From a virus (Duplodnaviria; Caudoviricetes), in IMG/VR virus record IMGVR_UViG_3300044623_000381, positions 1 through 52,155 of that record: DNA of 52,155 nucleotides, one strand, 5' to 3'. Position numbers and translations under genes: made by a program. Under the pieces are notes generated by a model. The model made no database searches. It was not told the origin of the DNA and worked only from the letters and a program-made list of their open reading frames with translations. Position 1 is the first letter of the stretch; every line of letters begins with the position of its first letter. Below, piece by piece: positions 1,474-50,088 of the stretch.

Positions 1474-1481
1474 TATATTTG
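1474..1481 (+). promoter_or_regulatory. TAnnTTTG promoter (TATATTTG), ATG 6 nt after the final G
   Basis: Exact consensus in a short intergenic gap. Confidence 0.7.
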
Positions 1482-2816: not shown

Positions 2817-3512
2817 ATGAAAAGTACATTATTATCACTACTTGCTGCTTCAGCATTACTAAGCTGCGCGAGCGAAGAATCAAAAGACGCTAAGGCCCTT
2901 AAGATCCACGAAGGCCTTTATGCCTTCTGCGGAGCATCAGGTGCGGAGCTTACTGGAAAGCAGATCATAGTGCAAGGAAAGGTATTTGAAGAGGGCTGTT
3001 CTATCTGTCCAGTGTTGGATGGACCTTCGGTCTCTAACCTAGCTATGGATGGCTATAGCTTTAGCTGGGGCTCTGAGTTCAGTACCGATAGAAACTTTCA
3101 GTACCCGAACAACGACGGAAGCACAGTATGGGATGGTAAGTCAGTGTGGTCTCTGTACTGGTACTTTGACACTTCTAGCTTTGTTCCTCAGTACAATCCT
3201 AAAACACAGGATTGGGAGATGATGCACCCAAAGAACCGCTCGTTTATCGTTAACACAGACTACGCAGTAACAAGTGAGAGCAATATGTTCTGTATGCCCT
3301 GTGAGGTTTTCGATACCACGGAGACTGGAATCGTTCTAGCTAAATGCTACGGGCCTATGAATGAGGCTGCTGTTCCTCTTCGTAGGGCTATCGAAGTAAA
3401 GACTGGTATGAAGTCAATCACCGCAGCGATAGCAGGAAAGCCATACCCGGTGGGAACACCAGTTCCAGTTATGGAGATGAGCAAAAAAGCACAGAAAAAA
3501 GCAAAACTATAA
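2817..3512 (+). CDS. Cys-rich lipoprotein of unknown function
   Basis: Signal peptide MKSTLLSLLAASALLS-C (lipobox LLSC); CSIC and CMPC pairs. Confidence 0.7.
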   Translation: MKSTLLSLLAASALLSCASEESKDAKALKIHEGLYAFCGASGAELTGKQIIVQGKVFEEGCSICPVLDGPSVSNLAMDGYSFSWGSEFSTDRNFQYPNNDGSTVWDGKSVWSLYWYFDTSSFVPQYNPKTQDWEMMHPKNRSFIVNTDYAVTSESNMFCMPCEVFDTTETGIVLAKCYGPMNEAAVPLRRAIEVKTGMKSITAAIAGKPYPVGTPVPVMEMSKKAQKKAKL

Positions 3513-3685
3513 TGAAAGCCAAGAAGAAAGACAGCCACGTAATGGTTCCAGCACCAGCTGGTCATCACTGGATGATGGAGAAAGGTCGTTACTATGTGAT
3601 GGCTGACAAGGACGGAAAGTTTACCCCTCACGAAGGAGCTTCGAAGGAGGCAAAATTCCGGCTATACTCCGCCCATCAATCTTAG
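3512..3685 (+). CDS. 57-aa small protein (MKAKKKDSHVMVPAPAGHHWMM...), not in the ORF track
   Basis: TAATG coupling with the upstream stop. The AP.G.HWM motif resembles small phage proteins I recall; MKAK start shared with neighbours. Confidence 0.6.
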   Translation: MKAKKKDSHVMVPAPAGHHWMMEKGRYYVMADKDGKFTPHEGASKEAKFRLYSAHQS

Positions 3686-4250
3686 CCTGAGCGATAATCT
3701 TCTTGCCAAGGGGAGTATCCTCGTGGCCCTTTAGCTTTCTACCTAATAGAACTGTGGGGATGCCCTCTGCCCTGTTGGGTATGGTCTTGTTGATGGTTTT
3801 TTTGTCGTACTGAAGCTCCACAGTCTCCTTACCGGAGGCTATATCCCTCCACCTCTCTACAATCATACGCCCCTGCTGGGTTAGTGAGTACCTTTTGCGG
3901 TAGTTCCACCTGTTCTCATCGCGAAACCACATAGAGGTGTCCTTGTGGATGTCGATATCCTCCATCGAGAAGTAGTCGAACAGCAATTCCCGCTTCTTCA
4001 TCCTAACAGTAAGCCAGTCTTTGGTCTGATTGTAGGACTTCGACAGCTGTTGTGCCATCCACTCGATGGTAAAAAACTCTAGGTCGTAGGCGAAGAGCAG
4101 AAAGTCCACCTGTATTGGCAGGAGCTTATACTCCTGCTTCATAAACTTGTTGGCGTGCCAGACGAATTTGTATAGGGTAGGCCCGCGATCGTCGCGGTAG
4201 GCGAAGTCCCTAAACTTTAGGTCTTCCTTTTTCTTGAACTTTTTAGCCAA
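3621..4250 (-). CDS. winged-HTH (MarR-like) DNA-binding protein
   Basis: FLLFAYDLEFFTIEWMAQQL helix region and YSLTQQGRMIV wing motif; own promoter at 4274-4281 on the - strand; TTG start. Confidence 0.6.
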   Translation of the reverse strand: MAKKFKKKEDLKFRDFAYRDDRGPTLYKFVWHANKFMKQEYKLLPIQVDFLLFAYDLEFFTIEWMAQQLSKSYNQTKDWLTVRMKKRELLFDYFSMEDIDIHKDTSMWFRDENRWNYRKRYSLTQQGRMIVERWRDIASGKETVELQYDKKTINKTIPNRAEGIPTVLLGRKLKGHEDTPLGKKIIAQAKIDGRSIAGILPPSKLLREG

Positions 4251-4262
4251 TGAAGTAAATTG

Positions 4263-4281
4263 TATCTTTGTAGCAAAAGTA
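4263..4281. promoter_or_regulatory. interleaved divergent promoters: TATCTTTG (+, 4263-4270) and TACTTTTG (-, 4274-4281)
   Basis: Both are exact TAnnTTTG matches between divergent genes. Confidence 0.65.
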
Positions 4282-4287
4282 CGAAAT

Positions 4288-5253
4288 ATGGGAACACTTA
4301 GTGGTCAGCGCGTAAAAGATGCATTCGGTTCACTCCTTAAGATGGAGAGCGGAACAGCAACATCGACGACTAAAATAATTGAAGACGGAGCAGGAAACGA
4401 TACCGCCCTCAAACTGTCAACGGTAAAGGTTGAGGTAAACGGAACTCTTGCCTTCACCTCTGCCCCAAGTACTGGGTCTACTGAAGTAGCAGCCCTTTTC
4501 CTTGACGCTAGCAACAACATTGTAAAGCGTAACCTTGGAACAGCAGCGTTTACCTCAGGGTCTAGCCTAACGCCCGTAGCTCCTCTTGCAATTGCAAGTA
4601 ATGTAATCTCCATCAGTGCGCCAACGACCTTGTCGCAGCTGACGGAGTCTACCGTTGCCATTGCTGACACCTTCCTGATTTACGACGCATCTACTACCGT
4701 ATACAAGTACATCACCATTGAGGACCTTACCCAGTATGTAGGAGCCAACGTGACAGTTACGGCTGGAACAAATAACAACATTGTATACAATAGCGGCGGA
4801 GCACTCGCTGGAAGCGCTAATTTAAACTTCTATGACACTTCAGCTGCTGAGATTCTTGCATTTAGCGGTGATAAGTTCATTATCACTCCTACGGTTGCTG
4901 ACTCAGGCACTAGTTTCCGGAGTCGCAAAAGCTCTGTTGCTAACGGGGCTTCAGGAGCTACACTGTTTACATTCGGCCTCAGTGGTGAGGAAAAAATGTT
5001 GATTATGGAATACTTTGCCTACAACAATTCTCGCGATCGTACGCGAATCGGAACATTGTATGTGGTTGTAAACACATCTACTGGAACAGCAACGGTAACC
5101 GACACAATCAACGTATCTAACGGAGCATCTACATCCTCAAGTCTTACGCTTGGTGCAACACTTAGTGGGAACAACATTTTAATAACAGCAACAAACTCTA
5201 CTGGAGTAACCTACTTCTTCCTTGCTACTGAGCGTAACTTCTACATCACATAA
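4288..5253 (+). CDS. virion structural, fibre-like protein
   Basis: S/T/A/G-rich beta-type composition. Start moved to ATG 4288, after the promoter. Confidence 0.65.
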   Translation: MGTLSGQRVKDAFGSLLKMESGTATSTTKIIEDGAGNDTALKLSTVKVEVNGTLAFTSAPSTGSTEVAALFLDASNNIVKRNLGTAAFTSGSSLTPVAPLAIASNVISISAPTTLSQLTESTVAIADTFLIYDASTTVYKYITIEDLTQYVGANVTVTAGTNNNIVYNSGGALAGSANLNFYDTSAAEILAFSGDKFIITPTVADSGTSFRSRKSSVANGASGATLFTFGLSGEEKMLIMEYFAYNNSRDRTRIGTLYVVVNTSTGTATVTDTINVSNGASTSSSLTLGATLSGNNILITATNSTGVTYFFLATERNFYIT

Positions 5254-5832: not shown

Positions 5833-6411
5833 ATGATACCATTGTACCACATACTAGTGCACATACCTAGCGCTGTAAACGACACCATCAAGGTGGGAGA
5901 GTCAGAGCTTTACCTCGACACTAAGTTCAACGAGTTCCAACACCGCACTATGAAAGCGCTTGTTGTAGGCATTCCCGCCAAGTTCAAGTCCGAGCTAGAG
6001 ATAGGAGACTATGTATTCCACCATCACCACGTTGCACTCAACGACACCCAAGTCGTTGACCCTAAAGAGAAGATATACCGCGTCAACTACGACCCCTTCG
6101 GTGGTCAGGGTAACCAGGCATACCTTATCGAGAAGCCCGACGGCAGCCTTATTGCTGTTGCGGACTGGGTGTTCCTAGAACCCTTTGATATCGATGCTGA
6201 CAAAGAGAAGAGCTTCATAGAAATCATCACCCTCAAGGAACCAGAGAAGCGCTGGGGTCGTATCGTTTACGGCAGCCAGTGGCTAGAGGAAGAAGGTCTC
6301 GCTGTGGGCGACGTGGTGTACTTCGCCAAGGACGCAGACTACGAGATGGACATCAATGGCCGCAAGCTGTGGCGTATGCAAATTCACCACCTGATATGTC
6401 AAAAGCTGTAA
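5833..6411 (+). CDS. tandem GroES-like co-chaperonin
   Basis: Two GroES-like halves (..EIGDYVF.. and ..GLAVGDVVYF..DYEMDINGRK..). Confidence 0.65.
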   Translation: MIPLYHILVHIPSAVNDTIKVGESELYLDTKFNEFQHRTMKALVVGIPAKFKSELEIGDYVFHHHHVALNDTQVVDPKEKIYRVNYDPFGGQGNQAYLIEKPDGSLIAVADWVFLEPFDIDADKEKSFIEIITLKEPEKRWGRIVYGSQWLEEEGLAVGDVVYFAKDADYEMDINGRKLWRMQIHHLICQKL

Positions 6412-6689: not shown

Positions 6690-8800
6690 TGGCTGGACTT
6701 AAGGTAATAGACAAGCAGGAGGTGATAAACATCTGTCCGAACAATTCGGACGGACCTATCATTGAGATAGAGTCCCTCAGCATCCAGTTACCAAAGCCGG
6801 AAAGTTTTCTCTTTAGCGACCTACCCAGGCATCAGCAGATGTGGAAGCGTCAGGACATACCTAGGGAGCTCGCTCAGATAAACTCTATGGACGACTGGTA
6901 CGAGTCACCGCGTGAGTTCCAGCAGAGGTGGAGCCCCTACATTGAGCAGGAGTTCAAGAGGCGTAAGGAAGGCCTGTGGTTTATGAACAACGGGGAGGAG
7001 ACCTACATTACGGGTCACCACTATATGTTCCTTCAGTGGAGCTCCATAGACATCGGATACCCTACGTACCTAGACTTCCAGCGTAAGCTGTTTGTCCACC
7101 TCTCGGCCTGCGAGTCAGACCCTCGGTGTCTTGGTCAGATATACACTAAGTGTCGACGTTCTGGGTATACCAATATGAGTGCAGCGGTGCTTGTAGACGA
7201 AGGTAGTCAGGTGAAGGAAAAGCTGTTAGGTATTATGAGCAAGACAGGAACAGACGCCCAGGAGGCGGTGTTCGGTTCTAAGATCATCCCCATATTCAAG
7301 GGCTACCCATTTTTCTTTTCTCCAATTATTGACGGAACGACTAACCCGCGTATGGAGCTCGCCTTCCGAGAGCCATCGAAGAGGATCACCAAGAAGAATA
7401 AGACGACCTCACGAGGTGAGGCCTTGGACACTATAATCAACTGGAAAAATACCACCAACAACGCATACGACGGAAGCAAGACCCATATGCTGTTTCTTGA
7501 TGAGGCTGGTAAGTGGCTGAATCCTAATGACATAAGAGAGGTGTGGAGAATCCATAGGACCTGTCTGCTTGTGGGTCGTAGGGTGATTGGAAAGGCGATG
7601 GTGGGGTCCACGGTAAACCCGCTGGACAAGGGCGGCAGGGAGTTTAGGAATCTGTACTACGACTCCGACCCTAACGACCGCAACGAGAACGGAAGGACCA
7701 AGAGCGGGCTTTATAAGATATTCATCCCAGCATACGATGCGATGGAGGGATTCTTCAGCCAGTACGGACTTCCTATTGTTGAAGACCCAGAGACTCCAAT
7801 GCTTACCGAAGACGGAACCATAACCGAAATTGGGGCTAGGACGTTCTTAAAGAACGAGAGAAAGGGTCAGCAGAATAACAGCTATGAGCTCAACGAAATC
7901 ATCCGTCAGTTCCCCTTTACCGAGGACGAGGCGTTCCGCGACTCGACCAAGAGTTCTCTGTTCAACATCCAGAAGATATACGAGCAGATACAACATAACG
8001 AGGAGCTTTATCCAAACCCTGTTGTCATCGGTAACTTCCAATGGAAAGACGGTAAGATGGACAGCGAGGTAATCTTCGCCCCCGACCCTAATGGGCGGTG
8101 GCGTGTGGCTTGGCTAGCACCTGCTGATATTCGAAATAAACGAAAGGTTGAGAACAATAAAGCTGTTGCCCCCAACGGAGCATTCGGGGTTATGGGTGTT
8201 GACTCCTACGACCTTGACACCACCCTTGACTACAGGTCCTCAAAGGGTGCCTGCCACGTATACAACAAGTTCTCAATGGAGCACCCATCCAATATGTTTG
8301 TCGCGGAGTACGCCTCACGGCCTCCGCTCGCCAAGATATTCTACGAGGACATCCTTATGGCTGCCGTCTTCTACGGATACCCTGTGCTGATAGAGAACAA
8401 CAAGTACGGCATCGCTAGGTACTTTGAGTCAAGAGGATACGATGAGTATCTTATGAACCGCCCTGCGCATCTAGCGTCTACCTCTTCAAAGATGAACGTA
8501 AAGACAAAGGGTATACCTTCCAACAGCCAAGATGTGATACAAGCTCACGCTCAGGCTATTGAGTCCTACATCCACGACCACGTAGGCCTCCACAATGAAA
8601 GTGGTAAGTTCGGAAGGATGTATTTAAACAGGACACTTGAGGACTGGATTAATTTTAAGATAGACGACAGGACGAAGTTTGACTTAACAATTAGCTCAGG
8701 GCTGGCGCTGCTTGCTGCCCAGAAGCAGGTTAAAGAAGTCAAAAAGACAAACTTCAACGAGAGGGTTTTCTTCCGCAAGGGTAAGGAAATTAGGCGATAA
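6689..8800 (+). CDS. terL: terminase large subunit
   Basis: Walker A-like KCRRSGYT, Walker B LFLDEAGKW, nuclease GVDSYD, IENNKYG. Confidence 0.9.
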   Translation: MAGLKVIDKQEVINICPNNSDGPIIEIESLSIQLPKPESFLFSDLPRHQQMWKRQDIPRELAQINSMDDWYESPREFQQRWSPYIEQEFKRRKEGLWFMNNGEETYITGHHYMFLQWSSIDIGYPTYLDFQRKLFVHLSACESDPRCLGQIYTKCRRSGYTNMSAAVLVDEGSQVKEKLLGIMSKTGTDAQEAVFGSKIIPIFKGYPFFFSPIIDGTTNPRMELAFREPSKRITKKNKTTSRGEALDTIINWKNTTNNAYDGSKTHMLFLDEAGKWLNPNDIREVWRIHRTCLLVGRRVIGKAMVGSTVNPLDKGGREFRNLYYDSDPNDRNENGRTKSGLYKIFIPAYDAMEGFFSQYGLPIVEDPETPMLTEDGTITEIGARTFLKNERKGQQNNSYELNEIIRQFPFTEDEAFRDSTKSSLFNIQKIYEQIQHNEELYPNPVVIGNFQWKDGKMDSEVIFAPDPNGRWRVAWLAPADIRNKRKVENNKAVAPNGAFGVMGVDSYDLDTTLDYRSSKGACHVYNKFSMEHPSNMFVAEYASRPPLAKIFYEDILMAAVFYGYPVLIENNKYGIARYFESRGYDEYLMNRPAHLASTSSKMNVKTKGIPSNSQDVIQAHAQAIESYIHDHVGLHNESGKFGRMYLNRTLEDWINFKIDDRTKFDLTISSGLALLAAQKQVKEVKKTNFNERVFFRKGKEIRR

Positions 8801-8810
8801 GTTAAGTTCG

Positions 8811-8818
8811 TACCTTTG
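8811..8818 (+). promoter_or_regulatory. TAnnTTTG promoter (TACCTTTG) for the portal gene
   Basis: Intergenic consensus match. Confidence 0.65.
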
Positions 8819-19435: not shown

Positions 19436-19477
19436 TTGAATACTTTGTATATTTGCCTAACTAACTAGTACATAACA

Positions 19478-22083: not shown

Positions 22084-22161
22084 CCATATACGAAACTGTT
22101 GCAAAATATGCAATAGTTATTTGAACTAATTTTGCGTTATTAATAACAAAATTTATTTTAT

Positions 22162-24778: not shown

Positions 24779-24846
24779 ATTGCCAAATTTTCGCTTTGCA
24801 TAGAAGTGTAATTTTGCATAATTATTAATTATAATTCTATTTAACT

Positions 24847-25694: not shown

Positions 25695-25728
25695 GTTGTA
25701 CTTTTGTATGAACTACAGATATTAAGAT

Positions 25729-32309: not shown

Positions 32310-32325
32310 TTAGTACCTTTGCAAT

Positions 32326-34709: not shown

Positions 34710-34732
34710 AAGTAATTAGTATCTTTGTCATA

Positions 34733-37700
34733 ATGAACGAAGAGCTACAATCTTTAATCGATCGCGCAATGGCCGCAGGTCGTAGTCCCGGGCAAATTAT
34801 TTCAGCCTTAAAGCAGAATGGTCTTGACGATGGCGGAATAATGTCTGCAGATTCCTATATTAAAAAAAAAAGTCCAAGCGATTTAAAGGGATCAAGTTCT
34901 CTATCGGATCTACGACCATCTGTATCGGAATCATTAGGTAGCGAGCGAGTACAGATAGGCTTTGATGAAGCTGCTATACAGCAGAAGAAAAAGGCTATCT
35001 CAGATGATGCTGCCGCACAGGTATACACTGCTGTAGTTAAGACTAAAGGTGACCTAAACAAGATTGAAGACAAGCAGGCTTTTGCCAATGCCTACACCAC
35101 ATATCGCTCTATGTCCGACGACCCTATGGTGTCGTCGCTTCCTCAGAATCCAGTAGCTCAAAATGGGCAGATAGACTTTGCTGTTGTCCCTGCATTGAAG
35201 AAGGGTGCCACTGAATACATCAACGACTTAATCAAGCAAGAAGAGGCTCGAAAAGCCAAGCTTGGAGAGAAGATTACAGTACCGATATTAAGCGAAGCAG
35301 CAGCTGGTGCAAATGCGCTTATTGGTGGTGTCTTAAAGTTCAATGAAATGATTACTGGAAGGGACAGCGAGCTTGCTGATTTCTTTCTAAATGATGCATC
35401 AACTAGAGGTCGTGATGCTCTTATTGATTATGGCCTTACCGAAGAAGACATTAGTAAGGGTCTTATTGGCAATATATCAGAAGGGAATATAGGTACTGGT
35501 TTAGCTATATTTGGCTCTACTTTGGTTCAACAGTTACCTCAGCTTGCTGCTGTTGCTCTGACTGGTGGTGCTGGACTTCCACTGCTCGCTGCATCTGCAG
35601 CTGGTAGCGGTTATGCCTCATTCGAAGATCGATCTGATTTAAGCGAAGGAGAGAAAGTGCTTTACGGCATTGGTGTTGGAGCTGCTGAATATTTAGCAGA
35701 ACGGTTATTTCTTGGTGACATAAACGCAATCCGAAAGGCGCTTGGCAAAGAAGGTATAGAGGGCCTTACTAAAAAAGAGCTGGGCGATGTGATGTTTGGC
35801 GCACTACCTAAAGGAGTGCGTGGAGTAATGGAAGAAGGAACAGAAGAACTTCTTACCAGTGTAGCCCAGCAGACTCTCGGAAAGATTATTGCAGGCGAGG
35901 AGTTTAACCCTATTGAGATTGCAGAAAGTGCAATCTATGGTGGAACTCTTGGTGGCAGCATTTATTTATTGAGTCGTGGCAGTGGTGCTATTGTAGATCC
36001 AGAAAATGAAGCTAAGATTCAGGACTTAAAAAAAGATCTGAATAAAACACAACAGGCAAAAAGCCGACCAGACATTGCCGAGGAAGAAAGAGAAATACTG
36101 TCTAGAAAAGAACAAGAGACTCGTCAGGCGATTAATGATTTTAAAGCGAAGGATGATGATTTAGTTGCTCGTATGAGCGAAGAAGATCGCGTGGCGCTAA
36201 AGAGTATTCAAGACGAAATTAGTTCAATCAGAAGAAAAAATACTATTGTAAAGACAGAAGAGGGTAAACAGCAACTCAAAAAAGAGTCTCTTGCCGCCAT
36301 TCAAAAGTTAAACAATCTAAAGACTAAATATGATACTCAAGAAGAAGCAGGGATACCAAGTCCTATCGTCGAAGGGGAAGCCCCTATCGAAGTCCAACCT
36401 ATCGAAGGAGCAAGCCAAGAAACGCCTCAAGCAGGTGGAGTTTTTCAAGTACCTGTCGAAGAAGGGGCTGAAGCCACAGCCCAAACAGAAGTAATAGCCC
36501 CAATACAGGCAACAGTATTTGCTGCTCCGTTCTACGACACTAAAGTCAATAACATTCAGGAGGCTAGGGCTATTCGTCAGAGCGAGCCATACATTAATAA
36601 TCTAGACACAGTACGTAATGCGTCTGCATTATTTAACCTAGAGATTGAGAACATAGACGAATCCATTGGAGGATTCGTTAACGAAGCTGGAGATAAAATT
36701 GTAGAGATATCAAATATCATTAGAGTCAAGGGAACTCCCGAAGACGTACAGAACTACGCCGCGTTTCTAGCCACTTCATCGCCAGAAACTCAGGAGGCAA
36801 CTATTGCCGCTACTTATGTCGAGCCCGACAGTGAAACCCACAACATTGATGAGTTAACTATCAGTGTATCAGATGTTGACGGAGCCATTGAAGCGCTCAA
36901 GGAAAACGATATTTACGACTTTACAATCAACGACTCCAACAACACCATTACATTTTTAGATTTTTCTAAGGGTGCTGATGGTGATTTTATGGATAATGTT
37001 GGTAAATTTGCTAAATCTTTAGAACGAAAAAACATTAGTTATGAAAAAAGAGACATCCGAGCCATCGACTCAAAATATATCGGACCGAGAGAAAGGGAGG
37101 GAATTTTTAGCGGGATTCAAGAAACTCTCGTACAACAGGGACAGACTGGGACAGAGCTTTATAAGCAAGTCGAACAAGCGATAGCTAGAAACCAAGAGTT
37201 TCTAGCTAAGACGTCAGCCCCAATATCTGAGGCTATAGTAGCTGAAGAGATTACTGAACAAGCTGTAGAACAAGAGCCTATAAAGAATAAGAAAGGCTTA
37301 AGCAGTGAGCAGGTAAATGAAGCTGTATCTGGTGCTGAAAGACTAGCTAAACGGCTAGGTCTTCCTACTAAGATAATAGTACACAACAGCAGAAAGGAAT
37401 TTAATGACGCTATGGACGAGGTGTCTAAGAGCGGATCTGTTGACGCTGGTGTTGAGTCGGGTAGGTTTATCCCGTCTGCTAATGAGATACACCTGAACCT
37501 CGAGGATATGACCTCAGAGGTTCCTTTCCACGAGGTGTTCCACGCAGCCTTTGTAAACAGGTTTGGCAAGAGAGGACAAAAGGTTCGTGAGAAAGTAGCT
37601 ACCGACTTTTACAATGGCATCGTTAGGATTCTACGTAGCGGAAGCGAGCAGGATCAATTGCTTGCTGATGCTGTTGAATCATTCACTAGGTCTGGGTACT

Positions 37701-40700
37701 ACACCGCTGAAGAGAAGCCAGAGGAGTTCTTAGCTCAAACAGCTGGATTTCTATCTACTAGTGGCGATAAGATCAGCAAGTCTACGATGGACAAGCTCAT
37801 CCAGTGGCTTAACAACTTCATTGCTAAGATTGCTCCAGGCGTTAAGGTTAATACTCGTGGTGAGTTTATTGACTTTATGAACTCGTTTTCTGGTGCGTTG
37901 TTTTACTCTCAAGCAGAGCAGACAAACGCTATTGATAAGCTTGGTGAGATGGAGGACGGGACTATTCCGTTGACAGAATCTCCAATTGACGTATCCCCAG
38001 AACAGCTAAAAGATTCTTCTAGTCGTAAAGCAAACTATATCAATACGTACATATCAAATAAGTACATCGTAGATCCAGAGAAAGTATTCGAAGACTTCCG
38101 TAAGGAAAACGGCCGAGACCCAAAGGTTTGGATTTGGATGAGTGACCAACTTAAGCGTGGTGAATACTTTAATCCAAAAAGTGGAGTACGTATGAGTCTT
38201 GAAGGCGGAATCGGATTCGCTTTTGATGCCGAAAATCAAAAGAAAAATATCGTGTGGGCATCTGGTCTTTCCGATAAGACCCTCACCGAACGCACCAAAG
38301 ATGCGGACTTCATTTGGTTTATGTCTGGCAGTCCCAAGTCAAGTTTTAACTTCTCAAAGGGAACTACTAAAGTATTCTTTGCCGAGATTGAAGCTGGTAT
38401 GCAAAATGTAAAAGGTCAGACCATTGAAGGAGTTGAAATAAAGGACGGGTCATTCGATGAGTTTATTGCTGTTGTTAATGCAATCTATGATGCAAACACT
38501 GGTAAAAACTGGGTAAATGCGGATAAGTGGACCAACGTTCGTAAATACTTAAACGACGGTAAGAAGGGCCTTATTGATAAGCCTATTCGTAAGTTTGTCG
38601 TAGAGAATATGATGCACGAAGGCGAGGGTAAGTCTATGCAGATTCCTGTACAAAAGTTCCTTCACGAGACTCTTGGAGTTCCACAGAAAGATGTGTTCCA
38701 TTCTTTGCTTCGTGACGAGGCATTAGTAAAAAATAATGTTCGCAACGGAGACCTTACACTTATTGTTAAGCCTACTGGAATCATTCGTGGATCTAACGTT
38801 CACGACACGTACCCAACAGCTATTACTGGTAAGATTGTAGGTGTGCCAAATAAGATTTATAGCGTACTTGATGTTGTACCAGAAGAAGCAAAAACCGTAA
38901 TATCAACGCAGACTGGATTACCGATTCCAAATGCTTCACCAACCACACAGATTAAGACTGCTGTTGGTGATGTGGGGCGTATTTACAAATCGATAGAGCT
39001 TCAAACAAAGGAGGCCAACAAAGTATATGACAACATACTTAAGGAGTCTAGTTCTAAGTCTTTCCAAGAGCTTTCAGAAGCTAGTAAAGCTGGTTTGCTT
39101 ATACACGCAACAAAAGGTTCATTTGATACATTTGATCCGCAGAGAATATACGGAGGAGCACGATCCCTATATGGATACGGATTCTACTTTACATCAAGAG
39201 CAAGTAAGGCGTTAGACTATGGGAGCAAATTTATTTTTACGCCATTAAATAAATATAACTTCCTTGACATTGATGCAAAAGCAAACAATGATTTTGCGAA
39301 CGAACTTAAGTCATTGGCTGAAGCTCGGATTTTAAAACTTCAGGGCCTATTTAAAGGCATTGAATTAATACCAAAATCATTAAAGACTCCACTAGATAAC
39401 GCATTAAAAATAAGTTCTACCATATCTGGTGATTCTAAATATGGCAAGTATTCTATTGATGACTTGCGTAAGTTTTTAGATAACGATTACATTCTTAGTT
39501 TCACAGATTTTTCTGAAGCTATGCTATCTGTTGGTTATGATGGATTCCAAACTGATGACTTTTATGAGGCTGTAATCTTCAACTTTGGAAAGCTGAACGA
39601 CAACCTTGTTAAGGACGAAGCTGACTACTTAAAAGAGTCATCTTCTCGTGATGTTCGTGAGGAAATACTAGATAAAGAACAGCTATCATTTAAGCAGAGG
39701 GCTGTTAATACAGCTAAGACTTTTGTTTGGAGCGATACTCAGAAGCAAATTCGGGTATTTAAAGAGCGTATGAGTTCTCAGATAGCTGAGGAAGGTATTC
39801 AGATTACAAAGTTTACAAAAAGTCTTAATAAACTTCTTAAAAAAGCAGATGTTCAGACTCTTGACTTAGTAGGTGACATATTTGATGGAACACTTACTCC
39901 AGAGAATCAAAGAATACTAGAGTCTAAGCCCAATGGAAGTCTGATATTCGGACAGGCAAATGCAATGCGTAACTACATTGATTCGTTTGCCGAGGAGTTC
40001 GTAAACAGCCCAGAGTTTCACGCGATGCCAGAGGAAACTGTTAACACAATTGTTGACAACTTTGGTCAATATATGCGTGGTAGTTATAGATTCTGGAAGG
40101 ATAAGAACTTCAAGCCGTCAAATGCTGCACGTCGTGAAGCAATCGCTTACGAGTATGAGATATTACGCGCAAAGAGCATTGGACAACTTACAAAGTTGTC
40201 TGGTCTAACCGAGAGTGAGGCTGACGATTTCTTTGAACTGCTTCACGATGAAACACTTGCTCAAGCAACAAAGGTAATAGACGACTACATTGCCGACATT
40301 GAAAAGATTCGCAACGGAAGCGACTTTAAGAAGCTTGGAATCGTAAGTCCTTCTGGCATAAAGCTGCCAAGCGAACAGTTCTTACGCCGTAAAGAATTAC
40401 CTGAGACAATTCAAAATTTGCTAGGTAAGGAGCGTGACCCAATTATTCGATTTATTGACACGACAATTGCTCTATCAAACATCAAGTACAAGGGCCATAT
40501 GCTCTACGCGATAAGCGAATCACTTGGCGGAACCCAGTTCATCAAGAACGAGGTGACGGACGCTGAGAAGTCAACTGGTGAATACAAAGAGGTAAAGGAT
40601 AAGTTCTCGCCCCTTAATGGTCGATTCGTTCACCGTGATGTGTATGAGGCAATCACAAATCAAAACATCTATGAATCCGATAACATATGGATGAGTGGAT

Positions 40701-42220
40701 ACCTAACAACCCTTCAGCTTGCTCGTAAATCTAAGGTTATATATAACCTTCCTTCTTGGCGTAAAAACCTTACTGGTGGCTGGTATACTATGGCAGCAAA
40801 CGGAGTGATTAACCCTAGCTTCGTAAGAGACATTAAGCGTCGTGCTGAGTTATTTGCAACGGGAGAGACGGACCAGGAGACAGAAGATCTGCGCAAGATT
40901 ATGGCTAACAATGGATTGCTTGCTCAGGACGTTAACGCTAATCTTTTGGGATTCACAAACGCTATGTACTCTCGCACTTTAACTGGAAATGACAAGGACT
41001 ACAATAGTTATGTTGACAGGGCAAGAAATCTAATTAAGAATTTTGACTCTGTAGTAGGTCAGAAATATGCTGCTGTTGACGACTACACTAAGCTTGTAGT
41101 CTTCCGTTCAGAGATTCAATCCTTTGCGAAGAAGATATACGGGAATTCATACGACTCGCTTACTGAGGCCCAGAAGAATAAGGTTCACGCTGAGGCGGCT
41201 GAGTTTGTGAAGCAGAACACACCAACGTTCTCAAGACTACCAAAGTGGTATGCATCACTTGCCAAGCTTCCAGCAGGAGACTTTCTATCTTTTGAGTTTG
41301 AATCCCTTCGTAGTTTCGGGACCAATATACTCAACGGACAGAGGGACCTTATGAAGGGTATGACCGATAAGACCCTAAGTAAGGAGCAGAAGGCTGAATA
41401 TATTGAGTCTGGATCTCGTCGCCTAGCTGGGTCTGCTGCAATTCTCGGGGCTCGTTTAGCTATAACCTCTATCTTAGCATCTCTTGCACTTGGGGATGAT
41501 GATGAGCTTGAGGAGGACATCAAGAACAACCGACCAAACTGGATGGAGGGCCACAGCATTATACCTACTAAAGTCAGTAAGGAAGGCATTGCAACCGTCT
41601 ATGACTATTCTATGGAGGATCCATATGGAAGCTTCTTTGACCTAGCTACAGACCCATTATCTTTCCCAGCGTATGTTGTTGACCTACTTCAGCCTAATAT
41701 GGGTATCTCGTTCTTAACTAATCTTGCAGAAAACAAGGACTTTTACGGAAGGGATATAACCAACAGCTACGACAGCAAACTAACGAAGGGGTACAAGTAT
41801 GGTGGTCACACACTAAAGTCATTGATTATTCCTCCGTTTATTGCATCATCGTACCGCGATGAGCAAAAACGTCTTGAGGCTGAGGCTGACAAGTACAGTC
41901 CTCTTGATGCTGTTGGACGAGTTGCTTCTCGTGCAGTTATCCGCGACTATGAGTACAACATCCCCGTTCAGTTCTACTACTTTACGGATCAGTTCCGTAC
42001 AAAGAAGGAACAGTACAGCGACTTAACTGGAGCATCTAGAGACAACAGGCTTGCGGAGCTTGACGAAATCAAGAAGATGTACAAGTCAATCACAAACATT
42101 GGAATCAAGAAAGGAAACTACAAAATGATTGCCGATGCAAACAAAAATGTTAAACGAGCGCTAAAACCAGCTGAAGAAGCTTACGTGCTGTACGGATACG
42201 AAATACCAGAGAAAAAATGA
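34733..42220 (+). CDS. giant ejection / large polyvalent protein with a zincin metallopeptidase and an ADP-ribosyltransferase-like domain
   Basis: 2495 aa; HEVFH (37529-37543) plus downstream EEFLA; HATKGSFDTFD...YGYGFYFT (from 39104); promoter TATCTTTG at 34720-34727. Confidence 0.7.
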   Translation: MNEELQSLIDRAMAAGRSPGQIISALKQNGLDDGGIMSADSYIKKKSPSDLKGSSSLSDLRPSVSESLGSERVQIGFDEAAIQQKKKAISDDAAAQVYTAVVKTKGDLNKIEDKQAFANAYTTYRSMSDDPMVSSLPQNPVAQNGQIDFAVVPALKKGATEYINDLIKQEEARKAKLGEKITVPILSEAAAGANALIGGVLKFNEMITGRDSELADFFLNDASTRGRDALIDYGLTEEDISKGLIGNISEGNIGTGLAIFGSTLVQQLPQLAAVALTGGAGLPLLAASAAGSGYASFEDRSDLSEGEKVLYGIGVGAAEYLAERLFLGDINAIRKALGKEGIEGLTKKELGDVMFGALPKGVRGVMEEGTEELLTSVAQQTLGKIIAGEEFNPIEIAESAIYGGTLGGSIYLLSRGSGAIVDPENEAKIQDLKKDLNKTQQAKSRPDIAEEEREILSRKEQETRQAINDFKAKDDDLVARMSEEDRVALKSIQDEISSIRRKNTIVKTEEGKQQLKKESLAAIQKLNNLKTKYDTQEEAGIPSPIVEGEAPIEVQPIEGASQETPQAGGVFQVPVEEGAEATAQTEVIAPIQATVFAAPFYDTKVNNIQEARAIRQSEPYINNLDTVRNASALFNLEIENIDESIGGFVNEAGDKIVEISNIIRVKGTPEDVQNYAAFLATSSPETQEATIAATYVEPDSETHNIDELTISVSDVDGAIEALKENDIYDFTINDSNNTITFLDFSKGADGDFMDNVGKFAKSLERKNISYEKRDIRAIDSKYIGPREREGIFSGIQETLVQQGQTGTELYKQVEQAIARNQEFLAKTSAPISEAIVAEEITEQAVEQEPIKNKKGLSSEQVNEAVSGAERLAKRLGLPTKIIVHNSRKEFNDAMDEVSKSGSVDAGVESGRFIPSANEIHLNLEDMTSEVPFHEVFHAAFVNRFGKRGQKVREKVATDFYNGIVRILRSGSEQDQLLADAVESFTRSGYYTAEEKPEEFLAQTAGFLSTSGDKISKSTMDKLIQWLNNFIAKIAPGVKVNTRGEFIDFMNSFSGALFYSQAEQTNAIDKLGEMEDGTIPLTESPIDVSPEQLKDSSSRKANYINTYISNKYIVDPEKVFEDFRKENGRDPKVWIWMSDQLKRGEYFNPKSGVRMSLEGGIGFAFDAENQKKNIVWASGLSDKTLTERTKDADFIWFMSGSPKSSFNFSKGTTKVFFAEIEAGMQNVKGQTIEGVEIKDGSFDEFIAVVNAIYDANTGKNWVNADKWTNVRKYLNDGKKGLIDKPIRKFVVENMMHEGEGKSMQIPVQKFLHETLGVPQKDVFHSLLRDEALVKNNVRNGDLTLIVKPTGIIRGSNVHDTYPTAITGKIVGVPNKIYSVLDVVPEEAKTVISTQTGLPIPNASPTTQIKTAVGDVGRIYKSIELQTKEANKVYDNILKESSSKSFQELSEASKAGLLIHATKGSFDTFDPQRIYGGARSLYGYGFYFTSRASKALDYGSKFIFTPLNKYNFLDIDAKANNDFANELKSLAEARILKLQGLFKGIELIPKSLKTPLDNALKISSTISGDSKYGKYSIDDLRKFLDNDYILSFTDFSEAMLSVGYDGFQTDDFYEAVIFNFGKLNDNLVKDEADYLKESSSRDVREEILDKEQLSFKQRAVNTAKTFVWSDTQKQIRVFKERMSSQIAEEGIQITKFTKSLNKLLKKADVQTLDLVGDIFDGTLTPENQRILESKPNGSLIFGQANAMRNYIDSFAEEFVNSPEFHAMPEETVNTIVDNFGQYMRGSYRFWKDKNFKPSNAARREAIAYEYEILRAKSIGQLTKLSGLTESEADDFFELLHDETLAQATKVIDDYIADIEKIRNGSDFKKLGIVSPSGIKLPSEQFLRRKELPETIQNLLGKERDPIIRFIDTTIALSNIKYKGHMLYAISESLGGTQFIKNEVTDAEKSTGEYKEVKDKFSPLNGRFVHRDVYEAITNQNIYESDNIWMSGYLTTLQLARKSKVIYNLPSWRKNLTGGWYTMAANGVINPSFVRDIKRRAELFATGETDQETEDLRKIMANNGLLAQDVNANLLGFTNAMYSRTLTGNDKDYNSYVDRARNLIKNFDSVVGQKYAAVDDYTKLVVFRSEIQSFAKKIYGNSYDSLTEAQKNKVHAEAAEFVKQNTPTFSRLPKWYASLAKLPAGDFLSFEFESLRSFGTNILNGQRDLMKGMTDKTLSKEQKAEYIESGSRRLAGSAAILGARLAITSILASLALGDDDELEEDIKNNRPNWMEGHSIIPTKVSKEGIATVYDYSMEDPYGSFFDLATDPLSFPAYVVDLLQPNMGISFLTNLAENKDFYGRDITNSYDSKLTKGYKYGGHTLKSLIIPPFIASSYRDEQKRLEAEADKYSPLDAVGRVASRAVIRDYEYNIPVQFYYFTDQFRTKKEQYSDLTGASRDNRLAELDEIKKMYKSITNIGIKKGNYKMIADANKNVKRALKPAEEAYVLYGYEIPEKK
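36330..36494 (+). CDS. nested +1-frame 54-aa basic protein inside the giant gene
   Basis: MILKKKQGYQVLSSKGKPLSKSNLSKEQAKKRLKQVEFFKYLSKKGLKPQPKQK; A-rich initiation region; overlies an acidic, low-complexity linker of the main frame. Confidence 0.5.
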   Translation: MILKKKQGYQVLSSKGKPLSKSNLSKEQAKKRLKQVEFFKYLSKKGLKPQPKQK

Positions 42221-50076: not shown

Positions 50077-50088
50077 TAGTCAAAGATA

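Follow-up and report, generated by a model that had tools for sequence, protein, structure and literature searches.

We analyzed a virus record of 52,155 nucleotides (IMGVR_UViG_3300044623_000381; Duplodnaviria, Caudoviricetes; referred to here as the window) and conclude that positions 36330 to 36494 very probably hold a real, selected, and separately initiated gene that overlaps a giant gene in another reading frame (Table 1). The nested open reading frame (ORF) begins with an ATG at 36330, ends with a TAA at 36492 to 36494, and encodes the peptide MILKKKQGYQVLSSKGKPLSKSNLSKEQAKKRLKQVEFFKYLSKKGLKPQPKQK; it is offset by +1 from the surrounding 2495-aa ORF (34733 to 42220), because (36330 - 34733) mod 3 = 1, and it occurs once in the window. 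The original prediction had described a very basic ATG ORF of 54 aa in the +1 frame, an A-rich leader, and an acidic, Pro-rich main frame. Translation bore out the ORF, the leader is present, and the main frame reads as an acidic stretch rich in Pro, Gly, Glu, and Gln (YDTQEEAGIPSPIVEGEAPIEVQPIEGASQETPQAGGVFQVPVEEGAEATAQTEVIAP). The 41-residue core of the small protein has a net charge of about +8.5, and an AF2 model (pLDDT, 92.1) contains strands at residues 2 to 5 and 8 to 12 and a helix at residues 26 to 45; the predicted fold is a beta-hairpin packed against one helix.

Table 1. Features of the giant gene and of the small gene nested in it (positions are those of the window)
Feature	Position	Strand	Basis and remarks
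Promoter-like motif of the TAnnTTTG type, TATCTTTG	34720..34727	+	13 nt before the giant ATG
Giant host gene	34733..42220	+	2495-aa ORF; last large gene of the virion module; polyvalent-protein type
Giant N-terminal domain, residues 1-532	34733..36328	+	Giant protein compared with 81 loci by tblastn
A-rich leader without Shine-Dalgarno sequence	36310..36329	+	Presumed internal initiation region, within giant codons
Acidic low-complexity linker in the giant frame, codons 533-588	36329..36496	+	Shares its DNA with the small gene; translation
Nested small gene	36330..36494	+	ORF and translation; 54 codons plus TAA; member of an unnamed family of ~44 aa
Weak ART-PolyVal-like stretch, giant residues 1458-1498	39104..39226	+	E value, 0.0017; 19.5 bits against a cut-off of 31.2

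The length of the nested ORF is within chance expectation, because eight alternative-frame ORFs of at least 54 aa, the nested ORF included, lie within the giant ORF between 34733 and 39000. What goes beyond chance is homology and conservation rather than length. In a search among 5.8 billion proteins, all 27 scored candidates matched (E values, 1.9e-19 to 2e-3), each with a length of 42 to 67 aa, and a profile search for the small-protein family retrieved 2,394 cluster representatives at E values of ≤1e-3 (572 at ≤1e-10). The nested protein is similar to its homologs over the full length, including invariant or nearly invariant columns and a family signature with conserved G-K-x-L and K-R-L positions. 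The family of free-standing small phage proteins that the original prediction had pointed to thus exists, with 250 viral loci, and the search for stand-alone homologs that it had proposed recovered free-standing and in-frame-domain homologs alike.

The family takes three forms: free-standing genes (in phages, bacteria, and archaea), in-frame domains of multidomain proteins, and nested genes. Among viral contigs, 250 of 429 pattern matches were confirmed as family loci, and 80 were kept for analysis, picked by similarity to full-length members and therefore with a slight bias toward intact starts. Cellular genomes yielded at least 530 bacterial or archaeal loci; 78 of the 80 that were kept are intact free-standing genes, one (L138) is shortened, and one (L087, in a genome region of Prolixibacteraceae) is nested. 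Cellular copies are common on large Acidobacteriota contigs and in other genomes, where the neighbors are stress genes (Usp, HSP20, BON, CBS, and Crp) and not phage genes. Of 120 copies, 66 are internal and 37 C-terminal in-frame parts of larger proteins. Aeromonas phage 1233 carries an unannotated free-standing ORF of 43 aa that matches the small protein (tblastn E value, 5e-6) and that is accompanied by GGGAG and by a hairpin resembling a terminator; an 812-aa protein beside it was ruled out as a homolog of the N-terminal part of the giant (best E value, 0.87). The nested arrangement itself was absent among isolated phages, as searched by blastn with the region of the window (0 matches) and by tblastn with the small peptide and the giant protein; the giant protein retrieved one distant ADP-ribosyltransferase gene.

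Neither sequence nor structure searches supplied a name for the family. Pfam and PHROGs had no match to the nested peptide and only scattered subthreshold matches across 70 aligned members. A profile search against PDB sequences gave two chance-level rows only, Foldseek against the PDB gave nothing at E values of ≤0.001, and a wide VIA-align search gave no Z score of ≥5, the best ties being weak (Z ≤ 4.3). BFVD returned sequence relatives without function, and the ESM Atlas matches were all to unnamed clusters (43 to 47 aa). DUF2188 (PF09954) was rejected, as only 3 of the 70 members matched and the best match (E value, 0.071) did not reach the cut-off. The top weak structural neighbors were the YegP-like UPF0339/DUF1508 proteins (3bid, 2k7i, and 6q2z), which are similar in size and likewise have a beta-hairpin followed by a helix. 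Foldseek gave E values of 0.9 to 3.3 for them, and their VIA-align Z scores (4.2, 4.0, and 3.3; rmsd, 3.8 to 4.2) were tied with those of unrelated chains. DUF1508 was absent from the families listed for the 70 members at E values of ≤1, and membership in that family is not supported; the cellular members of the present family are placed among stress genes. In the openly accessible main texts searched, neither this family nor any gene enclosed by the gene of a polyvalent protein was described.

The nesting is a recurrent feature. A small ORF of 43 to 65 aa lies within a larger ORF in 55 of the 80 viral loci, with the same frame offset every time, and the ATG, the frame, and a stop soon after the conserved core are retained in these loci. 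The enclosing ORFs extend 66 to 1857 codons upstream and at least 220 codons downstream of the nested ATG. At the lower end, two loci (L057 and L058) have only 66 codons ahead of the nested ATG; a simple split of a giant of the L056 type was rejected for them, as the ORFs that precede the nested ATG there show no relationship to the corresponding portion of the L056 giant. Twenty of the 55 enclosing giants have no similarity to the giant of the window at E values of ≤1e-5, and the small protein is 58 to 98% identical to the copy in the window across host giants. An open giant frame does not follow from the small gene alone: 17 of 20 distinct free-standing copies contain at least one stop in it, as against 0 of 46 nested copies.

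Selection on the two frames was compared in eight disjoint related pairs. At giant-frame codon positions 1, 2, and 3, differences per site were 0.141, 0.082, and 0.380 in the upstream flank and 0.148, 0.083, and 0.388 in the downstream flank, compared with 0.181, 0.072, and 0.044 in the overlap, where the most variable position is giant position 1, i.e., the third position of the small frame. The contrast between positions 1 and 3 gave an odds ratio of 11 in a Fisher test (p = 8e-20), a p value that, like the counts of 45/46 and 46/46 given below, overstates independence because the loci are phylogenetically related and the nesting possibly has a single origin. In three close pairs, the overlap changes (4, 4, and 1) are all silent in the small frame. 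Sixty-six distinct copies align without gaps over the core, and the entropy by small-frame codon position is 0.68, 0.49, and 1.10. Among 1035 pairs of nested copies, mean identity is 72% for the small protein and 42% for the giant-frame peptide, and identity is higher in the small frame in every pair. The giant-frame peptide is rich in G, E, Q, V, A, P, and T, with a net charge of -4.4 in the 46 nested copies.

These results show that selection in the overlap acts mainly on the small frame and that the giant-frame stretch is a tolerated, disordered acidic linker. Dual coding with the small frame constrained and the linker as its by-product, as first proposed, is supported by the homologs, by the switch in codon phase, and by the pairwise identities; the proposed check of synonymous constraint likewise agreed, with giant third positions at 0.044 in the overlap and 0.38 to 0.39 in the flanks. 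The caveat attached to that proposal, namely that Glu-rich linkers naturally produce Lys-rich +1 frames, fails to explain the conservation. The direction is the reverse: a folded, Lys-rich protein is encoded, and the acidic linker falls out of its -1 frame.

The genes that precede the giant ORF match PHROGs annotated as virion structural proteins, a position from which we regard the giant as a putative packaged protein that is delivered to the host. By tblastn against 81 loci, the giant N-terminal domain is common to many, but not all, nested loci, and the N-terminal similarity of the giants stops at about residue 573 to 590, i.e., inside or just past the overlap. The ART-PolyVal family matches above its cut-off in two related giants (37.3 bits in L003 and 53.2 bits in L080), LPD38 is slightly under the cut-off in a third (L022), and DarA_C was found in a fourth (L039). 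Iyer et al. reportedly described, in 2017, the large polyvalent proteins that phages and conjugative elements encode, to which the Pfam families ART-PolyVal, LPD38, and DarA_C belong. Judging from these domains, the host genes appear to be polyvalent virion proteins, the ART-PolyVal match of the giant in the window being below the cut-off.

Start codons of the 46 distinct nested copies are ATG in 45 cases and GTG in one. In the window, the A fraction at -20 to -1 is 0.60 (0.32 over the giant ORF), and across the 46 distinct nested loci the A content of the leader averages 0.21 above the background of the respective giant ORF. In 45 of the 46 loci, the region from -30 to +30 around the nested start has less structure than windows taken from the giant ORF. 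The weak RNA structure at the nested start is partly forced by the Lys-rich N terminus of the protein. The sole exception (L042; GC content, 61%) carries an AGGAGG that precedes the nested ATG by 8 nt, within the giant ORF; genes of the window generally lack a Shine-Dalgarno (SD) sequence. TAnnTTTG-type motifs, which may represent the Bacteroidota -7 box, precede 10 of 33 gene starts at a distance of no more than 80 nt, and the phage probably has a host in Bacteroidota. No such motif was found within 300 nt upstream of the nested ATG, and the one ahead of the giant gene is likely the promoter of an mRNA with both frames on it. Small portions of the window are represented in three metatranscriptome runs, and some of the contigs span the small ORF; the contigs, being 85 to 99% alike, stem from relatives, the libraries may include DNA, and no transcript starts or ends are visible. 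The nested gene is not contradicted by these contigs.

From these features we infer that the nested gene is translated separately, by internal initiation. The nested AUG would be initiated on the late mRNA of the giant gene itself, by way of an A-rich, weakly structured leader without an SD sequence, in keeping with the SD-poor gene starts of this phage, and the small protein would be made alongside the giant protein at its own rate.

As to function, our best guess, offered tentatively, is that the small protein binds nucleic acid (DNA) at the head or packaging stage and is possibly packed with the DNA and the giant; a DNA-binding core protein was among the functions suggested by the original prediction. 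The main competing reading, which we consider somewhat unlikely, is that of a protein-binding adaptor or assembly factor that docks on the portal, the scaffold, the terminase, or the giant and not on nucleic acid. It draws on fusions of the module to the C terminus of a portal protein (P0044) and to the N terminus of a prohead core protein (of Klebsiella phage DP01, in which the first 41 residues are the module), on BFVD relatives that include a prohead protease and XkdF-type proteins, and on 7 of 17 scanned free-standing loci in which the large terminase gene lies directly downstream. The two fusions and the terminase-adjacent loci also speak for the late or head setting of our best guess. 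The family is, however, common beside stress genes in Acidobacteriota and other genomes, and the module is fused to unrelated enzymes (DNA ligase, GNAT, NUDIX, and Fic) that have no head role; a universal ligand is favored over a phage-specific partner because of these cellular settings and enzyme fusions, and the strong positive charge suits nucleic acid. The same enzyme fusions make a head- or DNA-related role of the module only one of the readings that fit. The large terminase gene of the window is 28 kb from the nested gene. A small terminase subunit was rejected, as no TerS family was listed for the 70 members and the position before the terminase gene was seen only in free-standing relatives.

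It is also conceivable, as the original prediction had suggested, though we judge it very unlikely, that the small protein is a chaperone or an immunity-type inhibitor of toxic domains in the giant, since it shares an mRNA with a protein whose effector domains include one of the ART type. Host giants differ in these domains (ART-PolyVal, DarA_C, GGDEF, His_Phos_1, GNAT, and RadC), and 12 of 20 are without any Pfam match, yet the small protein stays well conserved across them; in addition, the family stands alone in cellular genomes and beside terminase genes. Dedication to specific toxic domains is improbable because the domains of the giants differ and because the family lives in cellular genomes.

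Whether the small frame is read separately was weighed against a +1 frameshift (by the ribosome or RNA polymerase) near 36330, which would join the N-terminal 530 residues of the giant to the module in a product ending at 36494. The module does occur in frame in many multidomain proteins, as the internal and C-terminal copies attest, and also sits in frame between domains of polyvalent-type proteins. One database protein (P0033) is exactly such a fusion of the giant N-terminal domain and the module, separated from ordinary nested relatives (L084 and L085) by a one-base indel in an A run. It comes from a single contig and represents a genuine but rare variant or else a mistake in assembly; because it joins the two parts in frame, a covalently attached form of the module is at least possible. 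As a general explanation, a frameshift is nonetheless highly improbable. All 46 distinct nested copies retain the start codon, whereas Met stands at the equivalent position in 2 of 66 in-frame internal copies, and free-standing proteins start at the same Met. Moreover, a stop closes the small frame 0 to 32 codons upstream of the ATG (≤1 codon in five loci), too near for a shift site to fit ahead of the conserved first strand.

That the ORF is a chance product, a Lys-rich +1 frame that falls out of a Glu- and Pro-rich linker and encodes nothing, would agree with its ordinary length, the missing SD sequence, and the empty Pfam and PHROGs searches, but is scarcely credible against homologs that include free-standing genes, the codon-phase switch and uniformly better conservation of the small frame, and a nesting that outlasts recognizable similarity of the giants; in its low-complexity-artifact version, it also conflicts with the confident fold and the ungapped alignment of distinct copies. 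Equally negligible is the probability that the conservation stems from an element of the nucleic acid itself (such as a packaging site, a binding site, or RNA structure) instead of a second protein. Any overlapping element could make giant third positions nearly invariant, but the overlap shows clean three-base periodicity in the small frame, changes between close pairs that are silent in that frame, and less folding than the remainder of the gene, and there are free-standing genes that encode the same protein with quite different codons at GC contents from 29% to 69%.

A separately initiated nested gene being the preferred reading, the comparison of loci supports the small gene as the older frame and the giant-frame linker as the newcomer, because free-standing copies abound in bacterial and archaeal genomes. 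The giant gene would have grown over, or fused across, a preexisting small gene, and the small ORF would not have been born inside the giant. A more far-reaching picture, speculative and rather improbable as a whole, is that of one ancient, universal mini-domain of ~44 residues that is encoded in three interchangeable ways: free, in frame, and nested in the linker of an injected giant. In the nested form, internal initiation on one late mRNA would yield more of a small, basic, DNA-bound protein (an escort or a condensing factor) than of the giant effector, and the two would be packed and travel with the genome. If true, this would be a gene engulfed by its neighbors and not one born by overprinting, and it would define a new class of small virion or nucleoid proteins shared by phages and stressed cells.

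The hidden gene recurs in over half of the viral contigs kept and is better conserved than the giant that hides it. Such nested genes are invisible in phage annotation because gene callers forbid long same-strand overlaps. The family, which has no Pfam or PHROG entry, connects the head and packaging modules of phages with injected polyvalent proteins and with the stress-gene neighborhoods of Acidobacteriota. A module that occurs by itself, as an in-frame part, or in a shifted frame amounts to a natural experiment on uncoupling a domain from a polyprotein, with possible gains in, e.g., stoichiometry, timing, or independent targeting, and the locus offers a test case for internal, SD-independent initiation within a long ORF in Bacteroidota-type phages.

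Like known large polyvalent proteins, the hosts of the nested gene are of giant size, are built from modules whose effector domains can be exchanged, and stand at the end of the virion module; unlike them, they carry an out-of-frame, conserved, domain-sized gene, an arrangement that we did not find described in the literature searched. In viral overprinting (PMC8227390), a gene that already exists gives rise to a new ORF within it. The present case is similar in that one stretch of DNA encodes two proteins and one of the frames is compositionally biased and disordered, but the polarity of age seems reversed, the nested frame being ancient (2,394 clusters and cellular homologs) and the linker younger; the origin would thus be opposite to the usual one.

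The closest parallel is the Rz/Rz1 pair of lambda, in which the o-spanin gene Rz1 is embedded in the +1 frame of the i-spanin gene Rz (spanin survey, PMC6139136). In both cases, a dsDNA phage has a small gene with its own start that is completely contained, in the +1 frame, in a larger gene on the same strand and that gene callers routinely overlook, and the same type of gene pair is known in other architectures in other phages (PMC6139136). As in Rz/Rz1-type pairs, we found full enclosure, purifying selection on the embedded frame, and a conserved start of its own with a putative initiation signal. The nested gene differs in having neither a lipoprotein signal nor a lysis context. The enclosing gene encodes a polyvalent virion protein of 1 to 3.5 thousand residues, compared with a lysis protein of 150 aa in lambda, and the embedded gene here appears to be the old, folded, and widespread partner, with the enclosing frame as a disordered by-product. 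Finally, whereas the survey found no spanin family that mixes embedded genes with other architectures (PMC6139136), one family here spans nested genes, free-standing genes, and in-frame domains.

The small ORF nested in the giant gene of the window (see the table) is unremarkable in length, with eight alternative-frame ORFs of at least 54 aa in the stretch of the giant ORF from 34733 to 39000, and its peptide had no match in Pfam or PHROGs. It is the sole member of its family in the window, an IMG/VR virus record estimated to be 86% complete. Across the overlap, the giant frame encodes an acidic segment in which Pro, Gly, Glu, and Gln are abundant. An antisense ORF with a TTG start is a nearly exact mirror of the nested gene, and comparable antisense open frames (50 to 150 codons) occur in many nested loci; we take the mirror ORF as a by-product of codon make-up. 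Between 58 and 100% of the sampled words from positions 35300 to 37300 were present in 17 lake or freshwater metagenome runs (14 studies), indicating that this phage lineage recurs in freshwater. RNA-library contigs from relatives span the nested ORF and are silent on translation.

Coordinates of the nested gene, its host gene, promoter-like motifs, and related loci
Feature	Record	Position	Strand	Remark
Nested small ORF	window	36330-36494	+	ATG at 36330; 54 codons; TAA 36492-36494
Giant ORF	window	34733-42220	+	2,495 codons; nested ORF in its +1 frame
A-rich leader of nested ATG	window	36310-36329	+	
Antisense ORF	window	36317-36484	-	55 codons
TAnnTTTG motif before giant gene	window	34720-34727	+	
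Other TAnnTTTG motifs	window	1474-1481, 1955-1962, 8811-8818, 19448-19455, 22127-22134, 24809-24816, 25699-25706, 32314-32321	+	
TAnnTTTG motif	window	50081-50088	-	
Free-standing family ORF, Aeromonas phage 1233	L001 = OR359403.1	3001-3132 (54724-54852 in OR359403.1)	-	43 codons; unannotated
Nested copy in a genome assembly	L087	6001-6135		inside a 1,719-codon ORF; Prolixibacteraceae (Bacteroidota) genome; locus taken from the initial 20 kb of a 7.6-Mb record
AGGAGG before nested ATG	L042	~5975-6000		
Early nested start	L057/L058	5802-9821		1,339-codon ORF
Nested relatives of P0033	L084, L085	around 8030-8160		
Prohead core protein, Klebsiella phage DP01	L083 (PP824815.1)	3501-4901		466 aa
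Free-standing copy near reverse transcriptase	L030	4512-5549		

The original prediction had likened the nested product to a family of free-standing small phage proteins, and such homologs were found. A tblastn search of 50,697 phage records with the nested peptide gave a single significant match, an unannotated locus of Aeromonas phage 1233 (E, 5e-6). This free-standing copy is identical to the window peptide at 21 of 41 residues, and has a GGGAG site 5' of its ATG and a terminator-like hairpin 3' of its stop. All 27 candidates from a word-indexed search of 5.8 billion proteins matched at an E value of ≤0.01 (best, 1.9e-19); all are unnamed and 42 to 67 aa long. Of 1.84 billion cluster representatives searched in full with a profile, 2,394 matched at ≤0.001, including 572 at ≤1e-10. 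These searches show the family to be real, large, and uncharacterized. The same module also occurs in frame within 120 longer proteins (66 internal, 37 C-terminal, and 17 N-terminal); many of the C-terminal copies with a Met look like putative free genes that were assigned over-long starts.

The family alignment was used to scan IMG/VR viral contigs, where 250 of the 429 pattern matches were confirmed; the nesting counts rest on the best 80 of these 250 loci. The proposed nested arrangement recurs in 55 of the 80, where a very long ORF encloses the small ORF, which is invariably in the +1 frame of the giant; the remaining 25 are free-standing or spanned by short ORFs only. In the 55 loci, the nested start is preceded by 66 to 1,857 codons of the long ORF, and 220 to >2,000 follow the nested stop; complete host giants span 918 to 3,529 residues. 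Since the start ranges from codon 66 (L057/L058, two viral loci) to residue 1857 (L048), the position within the host gene varies from the far N terminus onward. In 20 of the 55 nested loci, the giant had no similarity to that of the window at an E value of ≤1e-5, and the small proteins of these loci were still 58 to 73% identical to that of the window. An open giant frame is not the default state: at least one stop interrupts it in 17 of 20 distinct free-standing copies, versus none of the 46 distinct nested copies. Database protein P0033 carries the giant's N-terminal domain and the module in a single frame and terminates where the module does. The viral loci closest to it (L084 and L085) are ordinary nested loci with a one-base difference in an A run, and P0033 represents an assembly error or else a rare, naturally occurring fusion of the frames.

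In the window, the genes for the large terminase, portal, and tail/fibre proteins and several PHROG virion-structural matches precede the giant gene, in this order. Pfam matches were obtained for 8 of 20 complete host giants, all different: ART-PolyVal (two, above the cut-off), LPD38, DarA_C plus methyltransferase, GGDEF, His_Phos_1, GNAT, and RadC; the ART-PolyVal match of the window's giant was below the cut-off. The host giants are apparently modular, polyvalent-type virion proteins, plausibly ejected into the host cell, and the nested gene lies within a linker that separates their domains.

Several comparisons bear out the proposal that the small gene is the constrained frame. Column entropy at small-frame codon positions 1, 2, and 3 was 0.68, 0.49, and 1.10 across the 46 distinct nested copies, a coding-frame signature. 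We then compared differences per site in eight disjoint pairs of related loci by giant-frame codon position, position 3 of which is position 2 of the small frame. The values for positions 1, 2, and 3 were 0.141, 0.082, and 0.380 in the upstream flank (1,598 codons), 0.181, 0.072, and 0.044 in the overlap (320 codons), and 0.148, 0.083, and 0.388 in the downstream flank (1,197 codons). Change thus shifts from position 3 to position 1 in the overlap (odds ratio, 11; p, 8e-20); the loci are related and such p-values overstate independence, although the effect is clear in both direction and size. Overlap changes numbered 4, 4, and 1 in the three closest usable pairs, all silent in the small frame and all altering the giant frame. 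Over all 1,035 pairs of nested copies, mean identity was 72% for the small protein and 42% for the giant-frame peptide, and the former was higher in every pair. In composition, the giant-frame peptide favors G, E, Q, V, A, P, and T (net charge, -4.4), and the 41-residue core of the small protein carries a net charge of +8.5.

The nested frame could be reached by its own start or by a frameshift fusing the N-terminal part of the giant to the module. The predicted ATG is conserved, with a start codon at the homologous position in all 46 distinct nested copies (45 ATG and 1 GTG), whereas only 2 of the 66 in-frame internal copies have Met there, and a stop closes the small frame 0 to 32 codons 5' of the ATG (within one codon in five loci). 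Taken together, these features favor separate initiation over a frameshift fusion. The 20 bases 5' of the nested ATG exceed the locus's own giant-ORF background in A fraction by 0.21 on average (window, 0.60 versus 0.32). In 45 of 46 loci, the region from -30 to +30 around the nested start is less folded than windows elsewhere in its giant ORF (mean z, +1.66), a low structure partly imposed by the protein's own Lys-rich beginning. The exception, L042 (GC, 61%), is the sole GC-rich nested locus; within its giant ORF, a perfect AGGAGG lies 8 nt 5' of the nested ATG and looks like an embedded Shine-Dalgarno (SD) site. SD-like sites are rare at gene starts in the window, and 10 of 33 starts are preceded at 12 to 38 nt by a TAnnTTTG motif, a putative Bacteroidota -7 promoter box; none lies within 300 nt 5' of the nested ATG. 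SD-independent initiation is typical of Bacteroidota, and the motif and the SD-poor starts are in keeping with short leaders and a Bacteroidota host.

Across prokaryotes, scanned at one genome per species, at least 530 family loci were confirmed, mostly in Acidobacteriota, with others in Patescibacteria, Verrucomicrobiota, Micrarchaeota, and further groups. Of the best 80 of these, 78 are intact free-standing genes of 42 to 54 codons; in one (L138), a stop interrupts the gene after 22 codons. The remaining one (L087, in a Prolixibacteraceae genome assembly) is nested; it may belong to a prophage and may point to a host. Because free-standing copies are so widespread in cellular genomes, the small gene is probably older than the overlap and the giant's linker the younger frame; this age polarity would be opposite to that of usual overprinting. 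A tree of 66 distinct small-gene sequences was poorly resolved, placing 45 of the 46 nested copies in one 48-row group with at least five state changes; nesting could still have had a single origin. Neighbors at 20 sampled cellular loci include universal stress proteins, HSP20, BON, CBS, OsmC, a Crp-type regulator, and sigma-54 activators. In L088 to L165 (mostly Acidobacteriota), a "GKNLGGPY" subtype is a free-standing gene of 43 to 44 codons on large contigs, often amid stress genes and regulators, which suggests a cellular stress-related small protein.

AlphaFold2 confidently modeled a beta-hairpin plus helix from a 70-sequence alignment (pLDDT, 92.1). Family-profile and fold searches gave no reliable assignment across the family; UPF0339/DUF1508 proteins were the top structural neighbors, and only weakly so. 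Among 17 scanned loci with a free-standing phage copy, the large terminase gene follows directly in 7 (8 if a locus with one ORF in between is included); the copy precedes a portal gene in another locus and lies between a coat module and an adaptor gene in a further one. In Klebsiella phage DP01, the module makes up residues 1 to 41 of the "prohead core protein," whose gene directly precedes those for the decoration and major capsid proteins; comparable weak matches fall in genes of related Klebsiella and Escherichia phages that carry a coat-protein annotation. It is also fused to the C terminus of a portal protein (P0044) and found between enzyme domains of large proteins. At L030, a free-standing copy lies two genes past a reverse-transcriptase gene, with a DUF6273 protein upstream, and the region may be a diversity-generating retroelement. 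Given the strong positive charge, the late/head contexts, and the cellular homologs among stress genes, the best fit, a tentative one, is a nucleic-acid-binding protein. Its main rival, a protein-docking adaptor, is somewhat less likely. Dedicated inhibition of the giant's toxic domains is an improbable role because the domains of the host giants vary and homologs exist in cellular genomes.

A literature search, covering sources other than supplements and subscription journals, found no description of the family or of such a nested arrangement. Among known cases, lambda Rz1, which lies within Rz in the +1 frame, comes closest; PMC6139136 describes spanin gene pairs as embedded, overlapped, or separated and notes that embedded genes escape gene callers. 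Compared with Rz/Rz1, the embedded gene of the present system is the ancient, folded one, the enclosing gene encodes a giant polyvalent-type protein, and a single family covers free, in-frame, and out-of-frame forms.
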